Below are positions 1 through 9,444 of a stretch of DNA of 64,000 nt, piece after piece (position 1 is the first letter of the stretch; every line of letters begins with the position of its first letter). The stretch lies in the IMG/VR virus record IMGVR_UViG_3300030107_002332; one strand, given 5' to 3'. This DNA comes from a virus. The translations under genes and the position numbers were made by a program. Under the pieces are notes generated by a model. That model was not told the origin of the DNA and did no database searches. It saw nothing but the letters and a program-made list of their open reading frames with translations.

Positions 1-741
1 AACTCCATCATTATAGTACAACTTATGGAAAGTGTCAAAGGGATTTCTATAAAAAGTTGTCTTAAGAGTTTCTGTATCAAATACATGGAACCCTCTCTTA
101 GTACCATAATCATTCCAATACAACTGATAAGGATTACCAAGATAATATACGTTGTCTGTATTTGACTTCTGATGATAATGTCCTGAGAATACCTTCTTAA
201 ATTTACTGAATGGAGACACCTCCATACCAGCATCCATCACATGACCAGGATGAGCCTCAAAGCCGTTAAGCTCAAGATGGCCCATACAGACAGGAGCAGT
301 ACTGTCTGCGATGCTTCGGAAGGTTCTGTCGTAGTTGTCATCACATATCCAAGGAAGAAGTAGAATGTCAATACCACCAAAGTTACTGGTAGTAGGCTCT
401 TCAATGATATCCATGTTGTCGTATTCTCCCAATAGTTCTGTTGGGGAATTAATTCTAAGAGTATTTTTATAGTAGATATCATGGTTGCCTATTAATGTAG
501 TCATATGACAACCCAATTCTTTTACAGGGTCAAACCACATCTCCTTTGCCTCATCAAGAGACATGAAATTAATAAACCGTCTTCTATCAAAGGTATCACC
601 TAAATTTATAATGGTTTTAATCTTTGATGCTTTTAAAAACGGTACTACTATCTCACCATAAAACTTCTTATAATGAGAAATGAAATGTTGATTGTCATTC
701 CGTACACCGAAATGCTGATCTGTTATTAATAATATCTTCAT
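1..741 (-). CDS. g47: Recombination endonuclease subunit gp47 (Mre11/SbcD-like metallophosphoesterase); N-terminal part, runs off the window edge
   Basis: Not in the ORF track. Manual translation from the ATG at 739-741 gives [16 protein letters not shown]...NLGDTFDRR...[12 protein letters not shown]...FSGHYHQKS...[12 protein letters not shown], the metallophosphoesterase motifs of gp47. ATGA overlap with the pyrE stop; the frame is open to base 1. Confidence 0.93.
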
Positions 742-1256
742 GACAGATCATCAATAGTATACAACGAATATAATTCTACCTCTTGATCATACCATAAAAA
801 TGGTTCATACTCTTTCCTATCTACAATAGTAACAACTCTTTCTACATCATATCCTGCTTCACGTAACTTTGCTACTGCCTTAAGAGATGATCCACCAGTG
901 GTAACAACATCTTCTAATACTGTAACCTTAGTACCTTCTGGATGCACTGGACCTTCTATCCATGCACCAGTACCATGACCTTTAGGTTCCTTACGGATAA
1001 TTAAGGCATCAAGACTTCCCTTCATAGCAACACCTGCTACTAAAGGATCTGCACCAAGAGTAAGACCTGCCACTACAGGGGTATCAACATACTTCAATAG
1101 CATTGTAGCAGTAAGGTTCAACCCATAACCATTTAGTATGACAGGTTTGCAATTGACATAATGCTCACTGGTCTTACCAGAAGACAATTTATACTCACCC
1201 TTACGGTAAGCCCTCTCTTTTATCAGTGTTAGTAAGGCTTCTTTAACGCTTGGCAT
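738..1256 (-). CDS. pyrE: Orotate phosphoribosyltransferase (auxiliary metabolic gene)
   Basis: [24 protein letters not shown] and the PRPP-binding motif [13 protein letters not shown]. Confidence 0.93.
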
Positions 1257-5740: not shown

Positions 5741-6640
5741 CTATTTAGTCACGTACCCAATGACCCCATCTATCTCTATTTCAGGTGGAACAATTAGTAC
5801 AAAACCAATACCCATATTAAATACTCTTCTCATTTCTTCCTCTTCTATCTCACCTGCTTCTTTTATCTTATTAAAGATCTCTGGCCTCTCCCAAGAAGTC
5901 CAATCAATATTAGCCTTTAATCCTTCAGGTAATATACGTGGAACATTCTCAATCAATCCACCACCTGTGATATGTGCCATACCTACAATAGGTATCTCAT
6001 CCAGTAGATCTTTAACCTGTGGCCAATAGATTGTAGTTGGTGTAAGTAACTCAGGAGTATCCTTATAATAAATCTTATGTCTCCATAACATATCATTGAT
6101 AAGACTGTATCCATTACTATGCAGTCCACTACTGGGTAATCCTACTATCTTATCACCTTCTTTAATTAGACTACCATTAATAATTTCATTCTGTTCTACA
6201 ACACCTGTACAAAATCCTGCAAGATCATAGTCTTTAGCAAACCTACCATGTTCAGCAGTCTCACCACCTAAGAGATGTACCATTGCCAGATCACATCCCT
6301 TGATAATACCTTCCATTATCTGATCTGCTTTATCATCTAACTTCTCACAAGAAATATAATCTAAGAAGTATAATGGATGTGCTCCACAACAAATCACATC
6401 ATTAACACACATAGCAACAAGATCTATACCAATGGTTGTCCAATCATTGAACACCTGTGCCATATTAATTTTAGTACCTACACCATCAGTACCAGAAACT
6501 AATACAGGTTTCTCATAACCAGATGGTAATGGTATCATTCCATTAAACCCACCAATGTGAGGAAGTTTTGATTTTAATCTTTGAACAAATGCATTACCAG
6601 CATCTATATCAACACCAGAGTCTTTATAATTCATAATCAA
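5741..6640 (-). CDS. purM: Phosphoribosylaminoimidazole (AIR) synthetase (auxiliary metabolic gene)
   Basis: YKDSGVDIDAGN, LVSGTDGVGTK, IGIDLVAMCVND, PLYFLDY, GGETAE, SSGLHSNGYSL, HITGGG, FNMGIG. Confidence 0.95.
   Translation of the reverse strand: MIMNYKDSGVDIDAGNAFVQRLKSKLPHIGGFNGMIPLPSGYEKPVLVSGTDGVGTKINMAQVFNDWTTIGIDLVAMCVNDVICCGAHPLYFLDYISCEKLDDKADQIMEGIIKGCDLAMVHLLGGETAEHGRFAKDYDLAGFCTGVVEQNEIINGSLIKEGDKIVGLPSSGLHSNGYSLINDMLWRHKIYYKDTPELLTPTTIYWPQVKDLLDEIPIVGMAHITGGGLIENVPRILPEGLKANIDWTSWERPEIFNKIKEAGEIEEEEMRRVFNMGIGFVLIVPPEIEIDGVIGYVTK
5742..5748 (-). promoter_or_regulatory. Putative late promoter (CTAAATA) for the 2OG-Fe(II) oxygenase and g3
   Basis: CTAAATA overlaps the purM stop, 21 nt upstream of the ATG at 5721; T4 late consensus is TATAAATA. 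Confidence 0.5.
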
Positions 6641-6849
6641 TCAGTTATTCCATATTTTGTTAGATCATACTTAGGTAACCTTAATGGTTCATGTTCCACT
6701 TTGGGTGGTTTACCTATTATATCCTCAACATCAGATACTATCTTCTTCTTAGAGATATGATATGGTGTTGGTGCATTTTGTAAGCACACTTGTAAACACA
6801 GTAGTTGCTCATCAGTGAATGTAAAGGTATGATCAGGCATGAACTGCAC
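6637..6849 (-). CDS. Hypothetical protein (70 aa)
   Basis: Stop overlaps the purM ATG (ATGA); same strand, tight packing. Confidence 0.6.
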   Translation of the reverse strand: MQFMPDHTFTFTDEQLLCLQVCLQNAPTPYHISKKKIVSDVEDIIGKPPKVEHEPLRLPKYDLTKYGITD

Positions 6850-7033
6850 AAGAAGAATGAGGATCCCAACAATCAGGACATTCCATTTCCGTCTGATAGT
6901 TTTCTAACTTATGGATTAAATCATCCATCTGTCTATCAAAATAATCAGCACCTTTTTTCTTGTGGTCAATACGTTCCTTTCTCCATTGACATGTCCATAT
7001 CAATCTTTGGATATCACGTTCGTTAAATTGCAT
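6833..7033 (-). CDS. Hypothetical protein (66 aa) with a Cys-rich C-terminus (CPDC...CAVH)
   Basis: First ORF downstream of the tRNA; overlaps the next ORF. Confidence 0.6.
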   Translation of the reverse strand: MQFNERDIQRLIWTCQWRKERIDHKKKGADYFDRQMDDLIHKLENYQTEMECPDCWDPHSSCAVHA

Positions 7034-7072: not shown

Positions 7073-7160
7073 CTGTGAGGGATGGAGTCGAACCATCAAG
7101 TCCCGCAAGCAGAACAGCAGGGAAACAGCCTGCCACGTTTACCAGTTTCGTCACCTCACA
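7073..7160 (-). tRNA. trnN: tRNA with Asn (GTT) anticodon, long variable arm and U37; CCA not encoded
   Basis: Minus strand folds as TGTGAGG TG ACG AAACTGGTAAA CGT G GCAGG CTGTTTC CCTGC T GTTCTG CTTG CGGGAC TT GATGG TTCGACT CCATC CCTCACA G: 7-bp acceptor stem, D-loop GG, 5-bp anticodon stem, TTCGA T-loop. Confidence 0.88.
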
Positions 7161-7168
7161 TTGAAGCC

Positions 7169-7966
7169 CTATTTAAGGGCTGAGATTATACGGGTCATTC
7201 CGATCCCTCCACCACTTCTGGGGAAGAAGTCAAAGTCAAGGAACTGTTCAAGTTCTTGCTCTACCCTACTTCTACCAAACTTGTCTATAATCAGTTGAGC
7301 ATAACCTCCATCTGATATAGTATAGAATGTATCACGCATTTGATCCTTGTCGGTACTCCTTTCAGCACTACCGATAGTTTCCATGCCACCTAATATAACG
7401 TCAATCTTTTTACTTGTCCCATCAGTATTTCTTGCCATATTCCAGAATGGTGATGTCCACTCAGGGAAGTCAGTAATCATACCTCTACCAATTTGTTTCT
7501 CATGATCATGGTCTATCTCCTTAGTCTTAAATGCCTCAGCCCATGATGCATATTTTTTAATGTTATATTCTTCCAATGGTACACCTAACCATTGACACAA
7601 TTCTATCTCCATTTCTTTTAGTTCTTCTACACCACCCTTCATTTCAAATTCAAACATGGGGAAGATAGTCTCATGTCTACCTGGTACAGGATTTGGTTCT
7701 GCTCTATAAGATGTAGAGACACAGAAAAACCCTTCTTCTGAAGGGTTAGAAAGTAATTCATGTTCAAGCCACATCTGACCTGTCTGTGGTAGTGGCCAGA
7801 TATTACCACCATAATTATAACTTGCTACGGTTTCTGGATCTTCACAAGCAGCAAGGATGCTTAATCTATTTTGTGTGTGAACTTCCAGAAAGTTTTTAGA
7901 CAAAAAAAACGACCTCAATAGGCCGACAGCATCTGAAAATTCTCTTGGATCAATCAAACTCGTCAT
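7169..7966 (-). CDS. Class II (AsnRS/AspRS-like) aminoacyl-tRNA synthetase catalytic-core paralog lacking the anticodon-binding domain (265 aa)
   Basis: Motif 1-like LRSFFLSKNFLEVHT, motif 2 SYRAE...GRHETIFPMFEFE, ETIGSAERS, motif 3 PRSGGGIGMTR. The start is placed at Met 7966 because the ORF-track extension to 8047 crosses the g23 terminator. Confidence 0.85.
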   Translation of the reverse strand: MTSLIDPREFSDAVGLLRSFFLSKNFLEVHTQNRLSILAACEDPETVASYNYGGNIWPLPQTGQMWLEHELLSNPSEEGFFCVSTSYRAEPNPVPGRHETIFPMFEFEMKGGVEELKEMEIELCQWLGVPLEEYNIKKYASWAEAFKTKEIDHDHEKQIGRGMITDFPEWTSPFWNMARNTDGTSKKIDVILGGMETIGSAERSTDKDQMRDTFYTISDGGYAQLIIDKFGRSRVEQELEQFLDFDFFPRSGGGIGMTRIISALK

Positions 7967-7986
7967 TATTTTTGGACAAACTAATC

Positions 7987-7993
7987 TATTTAG
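7987..7993 (-). promoter_or_regulatory. Putative late promoter (CTAAATA) for the aaRS-like/tRNA cassette
   Basis: Directly after the g23 terminator U-tract and 21 nt upstream of the ATG at 7966. Confidence 0.65.
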
Positions 7994-7994
7994 C

Positions 7995-8024
7995 AAAAAA
8001 AAGAGACCCCTCTGGGGTCTCTTT
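7995..8024 (-). terminator. Rho-independent terminator after g23
   Basis: AAAGAGACCCC-AGA-GGGGTCTCTTT followed by a T run on the minus strand. Confidence 0.9.
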
Positions 8025-8043: not shown

Positions 8044-9444
8044 TCACATTAGGTTTGCAACCTGTACACGTCTGTAATACTTGTTAGTATTAGCAGTAAG
8101 TGCTCCAGAACCTTGGGTAAGACCTTGTGCGAAGGGGTTAGAAACCATTCCGTAACGAGTCTTGAAGCCAATTTTTGGTTGGAAGGTGTTAGGGTTGATC
8201 GCTCTGACTTGCTGTAGAGGAACGTAAGGACAGTAGAACAGTCCAGCGTCATATGCAGAAGTACCTTTGTAACCAGCAACATAGAAGTGCTTGTCACTAA
8301 CGTTAGCAGAGTATGGGTCAACGTATACCTTGATGCGTCCGTTAAGAGTACCAACAAGAGTTGAAGATGTATCGTCTACACCAGTCAATCCGTTGTTACC
8401 ATTAAGAGCAGGAGCGTAGTCAAGAACGCCAGCCATTCCAAGAGCAGATGCAACGTCTGCAGAGCAAATTAGAATGTTGCCCTTCCCGCGACGAGTTTGC
8501 TGCCCGATAGCGTTAGCATCTCTTTCGATCTGGAACAGAAGTCCTTTGAACTTCTCAACAGACCATCTACCATTACTGTCAACGTCAAGGTCAAATATAC
8601 CTGCGTCAGCAACGTTATTCTGAGCACCTTCTACTGCGTTAACATAGATCGTACGAACGACTTCTCTGTTAATTTCAGCAAGGATCTCAGTTGAGAGGAT
8701 GTTAGCTAACTCTTGCTCGGCATCAAGACCATGAATTGCTTTCAAGTCTTGAGCAAGCTCGATACTGTACTCAGCTTTTAGAGCACGTGACTTAGCAGTA
8801 ACCGTCACCTTCTCGATGGAGAATCCCATCTCTCTGAAGGCTGTGTTTACAGCACTGTCATCTAATGCTTCAGCAGTGGCTGTTGCCATACCTTCAGCAT
8901 CACCAGTCTTCTCGTAAGTACCAGCAGAACTGTCGTTAAGAACAGCAGGGTTAGCACCTTCTGCGTCGTTAACAGCACTTGATGATGCAGTTGGGTCATA
9001 CTTAGCAAGACCTGTTCCTGGACCACCTGAGAAACCTGCGTTAGGCTCGTTGAAGAATGCTTCTCTGAAGTCGGAAGAAGCAGGACTTCTCTCGTCTCCG
9101 TAAGCAGTTCTCATTGCAAAGATAAGTCCTGTTGGACCTGTCATTGGTTGAACGCCAGCAATATCATAGGCGATCAACATAGGCATTGAACGTCTGATTA
9201 GTGAGATCAGTACGGGGTCGAAACCAGCAACTGGACCAGTTGCGGTTGCACCAGCACCATATCCACCTGTGCCTACTGTTTGTAAAGTCTCATTAAGGAT
9301 CTGTCCTTCTTCGACTTGTGCTTTTTCTTGGTTCTCTAAGAGTTGTGCGACTACGCCTTTCTTATAAGAATCTTCTATCTCTGGAAGAGCATCGTGATTC
9401 AGAACGGGTGCCCACTTCTCTTGGAGTTGCTTAATATCAGCCAT
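8044..9444 (-). CDS. g23: Major capsid protein gp23
   Basis: KWAPVL..., FDPVLISLIRRSMP, GVQPMTGPTGLIFAMR, KSRALKAEYSIELAQDLKAIHGLDAE, GLFYCPYVPL, QPKIGFKTRYG. Confidence 0.98.
   Translation of the reverse strand: MADIKQLQEKWAPVLNHDALPEIEDSYKKGVVAQLLENQEKAQVEEGQILNETLQTVGTGGYGAGATATGPVAGFDPVLISLIRRSMPMLIAYDIAGVQPMTGPTGLIFAMRTAYGDERSPASSDFREAFFNEPNAGFSGGPGTGLAKYDPTASSSAVNDAEGANPAVLNDSSAGTYEKTGDAEGMATATAEALDDSAVNTAFREMGFSIEKVTVTAKSRALKAEYSIELAQDLKAIHGLDAEQELANILSTEILAEINREVVRTIYVNAVEGAQNNVADAGIFDLDVDSNGRWSVEKFKGLLFQIERDANAIGQQTRRGKGNILICSADVASALGMAGVLDYAPALNGNNGLTGVDDTSSTLVGTLNGRIKVYVDPYSANVSDKHFYVAGYKGTSAYDAGLFYCPYVPLQQVRAINPNTFQPKIGFKTRYGMVSNPFAQGLTQGSGALTANTNKYYRRVQVANLM

Follow-up and report, generated by a model that had tools for sequence, protein, structure and literature searches.

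What is the role of a gene for a cut-down asparaginyl-tRNA synthetase which, in a marine cyanobacterial virus, lies directly next to an unusual tRNA with an asparagine anticodon? The gene pair is located in a 64,000-nucleotide stretch of IMG/VR record IMGVR_UViG_3300030107_002332 (hereafter the window), a segment of a T4-like cyanophage encoding gp20-gp23, gp3, uvsY and uvsW. In the original prediction, a terminator and a late promoter were proposed to open a unit encoding a class II synthetase core without an anticodon domain and a long-variable-arm tRNA(GUU), and the two were suggested to form an orthogonal aminoacylation pair. The observation itself was confirmed, as all of these features were found on the minus strand at the positions collected below. 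The gene is hereafter called X.

Features of the X-tRNA locus and associated genes in the 64,000-nt window.
Position	Strand	Feature	Support
8000..8024	-	Intrinsic terminator closing the gp23 major capsid gene	11-pair stem plus T run; gp23 ORF at 8044-9444
7987..7993	-	T4-type late promoter box CTAAATA (putative)	Consensus match only; TAAATA upstream of X in 66 of 66 cyanophage-clade loci
7169..7966	-	Gene X, 265 aa, ATG at 7966, TAG at 7171-7169; stand-alone class IIb (AsnRS-derived) catalytic core; T4-GC194 'tRNA ligase', PHROG 29758; proposed dihydroorotate-forming enzyme	Pfam tRNA-synt_2 at residues 11-264; AlphaFold model, pLDDT 96
7161..7168	-	8-nt spacer between the stop codon and the tRNA 5' end	Spacer 4-12 nt in most homologues
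7073..7160	-	88-nt tRNA(GUU): tRNA-Leu-type body (3-bp D stem, nucleotide 20a, long V arm with 6-bp stem), U1-A72, G73, anticodon loop CU-GUU-UC (U37), no encoded CCA; proposed non-ribosomal Asn/Asp carrier	ARAGORN call tRNA-Asn(GUU)
6637..7033	-	Two small unknown ORFs between the tRNA and purM	phrog_5190, phrog_37679
5741..6640	-	purM, purine synthesis gene (context only)	AIRS domains, phrog_1207
738..1256	-	pyrE, orotate phosphoribosyltransferase (unlinked but functionally associated)	TIGR00336, 128 bits against a cut-off of 106.8; co-occurs with X in cultured cyanophages

The sigma-70 promoter and terminator scans as such gave hits only at the level of shuffled sequence. A longer ORF of X with a GTG start at 8047 was rejected, since it crosses the terminator and the homologues start at the same Met as the shorter one. 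The tRNA is not a chance fold: the cloverleaf together with the V stem covaries across 50 homologues, with 99.3% of cells paired and compensatory changes in 20 of 24 pairs, whereas slid controls gave 43-54%. An Rfam search returned only a sub-threshold tRNA-Sec hit, which was rejected.

To determine what kind of protein X is, its sequence and predicted structure were compared with known families. The only Pfam hit was tRNA-synt_2, and no NCBIfam model was matched at its cut-off; the asnS model gave 17 bits against 342.6 and the PRK06462 model 20 bits against 389. A phmmer search against PDB found nothing, and PDB matches were obtained only with the family profile. The AlphaFold model matched AsnRS catalytic domains best (Z 26.1, rmsd 2.0 over 239 residues), followed by AspRS (24.9), archaeal asparagine synthetase A (23.5) and EpmA (22.8). 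The AsnRS structures from human (8TC9), Brugia (2XTI), T. thermophilus (9SH8) and P. horikoshii (1X54) share with X the fold (Z 25-26, rmsd 2.0-2.4 over about 240 residues), motifs 1-3, the ATP/Mg residues and the Asn side-chain pair E106/R203. However, X is only about 20% identical to them, is acidic, and lacks both the N-terminal OB-fold anticodon domain and a C-terminal tail after motif 3. The ORF starts at motif 1 behind the terminator, and none of 15 longer relatives carries a listed OB domain. Moreover, X co-exists with a full AsnRS in 29 of 50 carrier genomes. By alignment to P. horikoshii AsnRS, X keeps E42, Q61, Q64, R88, E90, R97, H98, F102, E106 (E228 in P. horikoshii), D189, E196, R203 (R364) and R259 and lacks the AspRS lysine, which indicates an asparagine-type pocket with the ATP site intact. 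The pocket residues, together with the family-specific R34, C41, S200 and R250, are 94-100% conserved in 162 tRNA-linked phage and 67 cellular proteins.

Archaeal asparagine synthetase A (AsnRS2, PDB 3P8T/3REU) and bacterial AsnA resemble X as stand-alone class IIb cores, X being likewise proposed to work without charging tRNA, but the archaeal enzyme is 18% identical with a lower Z than AsnRS, no AsnA Pfam hit was obtained, a profile comparison with AsnA (hhalign) gave a probability of 1.6%, and X is linked to pyr genes and to a dedicated tRNA. EpmA/GenX (PDB 3A5Y) is likewise an anticodon-less class IIb paralogue with a non-canonical acceptor; its pocket is of the lysine type, while that of X is of the asparagine type, and neither EF-P nor EpmB was found among the recurrent neighbours of X. 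The gene is already annotated as 'tRNA ligase' in P-SSM7 (89% identity), P-SSM2 and P-SSM5 (76%), and Sullivan 2010 (PMC3037559) lists it as T4-GC194 without comment. No description of the family, the tRNA or the pathway proposed below was found in the literature searched.

The next question was whether X and the tRNA belong together. In P-SSM7 and in P-SSM2/5, the tRNA follows X at different genomic sites; the RefSeq tRNA-Asn feature of P-SSM2 (NC_006883.2, 6825-6910) is placed about 2 kb from the real tRNA, which lies right after the 'tRNA ligase' gene. Of 181 distinct viral X genes, 159 have a parsed tRNA downstream, 8 are truncated, and 14 show none, at least two of these being parser misses, so that 159 of 173 non-truncated genes carry it. 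In reverse, 93 of 102 viral contigs found by a tRNA pattern have X within 500 nt upstream, and four of the other nine are different tRNAs. Among metagenome contigs with enough upstream DNA, 24 of 25 have X. The tRNA occurs in about 92% of the loci, whereas the next commonest neighbour of X occurs in 16 of 172. A 287-aa 2OG-Fe(II) oxygenase-like gene without an NCBIfam hit follows X-tRNA in 13 phage loci (for example locus L177, 5944-6804). X-tRNA loci inside MAGs labelled Poseidoniia, Bacteroidetes, Legionellales, Marinimicrobia and Pacearchaeota (L086-L091, L103) group with phage proteins and look like mis-binned viral contigs. The tree, a quick version with SH-aLRT support only, was used solely to establish that tRNA-adjacent phage proteins form one group.

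Among 144 distinct copies of the tRNA, U1-A72 is present in 143, G73 in 144, GUU in 143, nucleotide 20a in 144, and U37 in 125 and A37 in 13, while the V region runs from 6 to 39 nt. Since ARAGORN miscalls long-arm copies as His, Asp, Glu or Gly, these were re-parsed, and as the parser allowed only GYY anticodons, the anticodon counts are conditional on that. One copy (L273, 3868-3963) has a GUC (Asp) anticodon on a U1-A72 acceptor; this single sequence would misread Asp codons if amidated and used in translation. A model built from the copies hit tRNA-Leu best in 28 of 30 cellular genomes read. The tRNA therefore has a leucine-type body, although with G73 instead of the A73 discriminator of tRNA-Leu, and asparagine marks, although without the short variable loop and the usual A37 of a canonical translating tRNA-Asn. 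This combination, with U37 and V regions of up to 39 nt, matched no paper searched and no Rfam family at threshold.

X does not need the tRNA everywhere. A GTDB scan returned homologues at 43-62% identity in Patescibacteria, DPANN archaea, Bacteroidota, Alphaproteobacteria, Myxococcota, Chlamydiota and Dependentiae, and none of the 67 cellular homologues has the tRNA next to it. Two huge phages have X and only ordinary tRNA-Asn among the model hits read. Conversely, a group of phages of about 195 kb (L433, L478, L486), including two complete 195-kb phages, carries the long-arm tRNA(GUU) without X. Thus, the separate occurrence of enzyme and tRNA, which had been named beforehand as evidence against a charging pair, was observed outside the phage clade. 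The family also includes a giant-virus homologue (Pithovirus LCPAC304, 43% identity) and divergent members that have lost catalytic residues (together BFVD A0A481Z9R2, F2Y2K4; P0188, P0225), as well as an X core fused behind a GIY-YIG/NUMOD3 homing-endonuclease-like region (P0283).

The neighbourhood of the cellular homologues pointed to pyrimidine synthesis, a link missed in the original prediction. Two cluster representatives are fusions of X to dihydroorotate dehydrogenase (DHODH) and to OMP decarboxylase; DHODH fusions recur in 9 protein clusters from several sources, and the OMP decarboxylase fusion lies beside pyrE and pyrD. No MGS-domain fusion was recovered among the 15 longer relatives. 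Genes for pyr enzymes lie within 3 kb of X in 17 cellular loci of Bacteroidota, Alphaproteobacteria, Myxococcota, Chlamydiota and Nanobdellota. In 50 carrier genomes, pyrF was found in 37, DHODH in 29, pyrB in 5, carB in 10, and PyrC over its cut-off in 3, and the dimeric PyrC type was absent in the 5 tested. Of 27 carriers with both pyrD and pyrF, 24 lack pyrB and 17 of these also lack carB, whereas 14 of 14 controls have pyrB. One is a single 3.2-Mb chromosome (genome G033) with X directly behind pyrD. However, most carriers are MAGs of unreported completeness, so the absences are soft; 21 of 50 have no DHODH hit, and three keep pyrB with pyrD/pyrF. In one locus (L110) X heads pyrR-pyrB-pyrC with an intact HxH motif. 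Within two families X and pyrB exclude each other: in Weeksellaceae pyrB is present in 0 of 6 X carriers and 90 of 115 others, and in Saprospiraceae in 0 of 2 and 94 of 99 (Fisher p 0.0002 and 0.004, overstated because the carriers are kin).

The association extends to phages. Among 50,697 phage records, the pyrE of the window hit cultured cyanophages only in P-SSM7, P-SSM5 and P-SSM2, exactly the set that has X, at a distance of 17 to over 100 kb from it. The one complete IMG/VR carrier tested also has pyrE, while an 85% complete one does not. In other marine phages, a miniature 229-aa family-1 DHODH with its Asn and catalytic Cys motifs sits just upstream of X or directly downstream of the tRNA (L546, 12205-12891; L087, 1276-1962); it gave only one hit among annotated phage records. 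One huge phage, on the other hand, has DHODH and a pyrE-like gene without X.

These results are best explained if X is not a working tRNA synthetase but an AsnRS-derived ATP-dependent ligase that feeds de novo pyrimidine synthesis, most likely making dihydroorotate in place of CarAB, PyrB and PyrC, with which it shares the pathway position by genome context but no homology. Dihydroorotate is asparagine plus one carbonyl, so the shortest reaction filling the genomic hole would be N-carboxylation of Asn, adenylation of the carbamate, and ring closure by the side-chain amide (Asn + HCO3- + ATP to dihydroorotate + AMP + PPi), one 265-aa adenylating enzyme thereby replacing three steps through carbamoyl phosphate. 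The threonylcarbamoyl-AMP synthase TsaC/Sua5 offers a chemical precedent, as it forms a carbamoyl-adenylate from an amino acid, bicarbonate and ATP, although it has an unrelated fold and its product is transferred intermolecularly to tRNA A37 rather than cyclized. In the phage, X would be a late auxiliary gene that raises pyrimidine supply together with pyrE. The tRNA would be a dedicated carrier, charged by host enzymes (non-discriminating AspRS then GatCAB, or AsnRS) and kept out of normal translation, so that asparagine reaches X where free Asn may be scarce. It keeps the marks read by AspRS/AsnRS and GatCAB (GUU, G73 and U1-A72; PMC9976931, PMC1635274) and loses A37, which fits such a role. 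The co-inheritance, the pocket residues by alignment, the fold of the structural model, the genomic link to PyrD/E/F and the exclusion with pyrB are results of the analysis, whereas the substrate, the product, the chemistry, any catalytic activity and the role of the tRNA are inferred. The probability of this model as a whole is about 0.5; the pyrimidine role is likely, while both the formation of dihydroorotate from Asn and the tRNA as a host-charged supply are only slightly more likely than not.

Some observations fit this model less well. Nucleotide 20a is a described antideterminant of bacterial GatCAB (PMC1635274), so the tRNA might stay Asp-charged or be charged by AsnRS. A pocket kept in AsnRS form would normally activate the alpha-carboxyl, which the proposed reaction does not use. 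In favour of the model, two X-carrying alphaproteobacteria with GatB and no AsnRS have the same kind of tRNA elsewhere in the chromosome, with a Leu-type D loop, U1-A72, G73 and CCA, next to a beta-lactamase-like gene (G036, L321:1501-1590; G004, L324:1498-1587), a finding without a control from X-less relatives. However, nine other AsnRS-less carriers showed no such tRNA by pattern, and AsnB-family genes are present in the five alphaproteobacterial and proteobacterial carriers tested.

Other explanations are less probable. Within the pyrimidine role, X may act on the aminoacyl-tRNA itself, with Asn-tRNA N-carboxylated and cyclized to dihydroorotyl-tRNA and then released, cells using ordinary tRNA-Asn and phages bringing a private one. 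The near-obligate adjacency agrees with this view, as does the occurrence of the pairing at three separate places in the family: the phage clade, a distant phage X (L516) with an A1-U72 version of the tRNA 270 nt downstream, and G004/G036, the latter two lying outside the main tRNA-linked phage group. With the alpha-carboxyl esterified, the carbamate could, by inference, take the site at the motif-2 Arg. This reading remains unlikely, because X has a net charge of -6.4 per 100 aa (phage clade -7.0, against +0.7, -3.5 and +1.0 for three AsnRS/AspRS cores), its motif-2 loop has no basic residues, and no pocket position separates tRNA-linked from cellular X. It is also unlikely, though possible, that X makes carbamoyl-aspartate or a carbamoyl donor, replacing only CarAB or CarAB and PyrB, or closes the ring of carbamoyl-aspartate by beta-carboxyl adenylation. 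AsnA and archaeal AS-A use beta-carboxyl adenylation, X heads pyrB-pyrC or pyrB-pyrI in two genomes without carB, and the tRNA would stay Asp-charged if 20a blocks GatCAB; but most carriers with pyrD and pyrF lack both pyrB and any PyrC, so a single-step replacement leaves holes, and the pocket is of the Asn type.

The original interpretation was only partly supported. X and the tRNA form a co-inherited and, judging from sequence, co-transcribed unit, the pocket is of the asparagine type with ATP- and Asn-binding residues intact, and a non-ribosomal output is likely. That X reads the V arm or acceptor stem and charges its own tRNA, for Asn decoding or as an aminoacyl donor, was not supported: the same pocket occurs in 67 cellular homologues tied to pyr genes and without the adjacent tRNA, the V arm varies in length, the anticodon is conserved although X cannot read it, position 37 varies, and X is acidic with no added RNA-binding domain. 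Still less likely is an ammonia-dependent asparagine synthetase like AsnA or archaeal AS-A, with the tRNA as passenger or partner. The architecture is the same, and two chlamydial carriers have AsnRS but no AsnB hit; however, AsnRS matches better, one carrier genome (G022) has AsnA, AsnB and X, AsnRS-less carriers would not need free Asn for translation, and the loss of pyrB is left unexplained. Equally improbable is an ordinary translating or nuclease-resistant replacement tRNA-Asn linked to X only by shared mobility: the GUU anticodon, the T-stem and often CCA are conserved and two complete phages carry the tRNA alone, but no other neighbour approaches its frequency beside X, and one copy has the GUC anticodon.

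In its broadest form, which is less likely than not, the model describes a one-enzyme dihydroorotate synthetase evolved from AsnRS that builds the pyrimidine ring from asparagine delivered on a dedicated, non-translating tRNA, replacing the three carbamoyl-phosphate steps in many bacteria, archaea and phages, so that nucleotide synthesis would be fed through the aminoacyl-tRNA machinery. The carbamoyl phosphate route to dihydroorotate is the textbook and only described entry to de novo pyrimidines. A single aaRS-derived enzyme replacing it would be a new pathway, would change auxotrophy calls for many reduced genomes (CPR, DPANN, Chlamydiae, Dependentiae) and some free-living Bacteroidota, and would add a nucleotide-supply gene to marine phage metabolism, while the dedicated tRNA would be a new non-ribosomal tRNA use.
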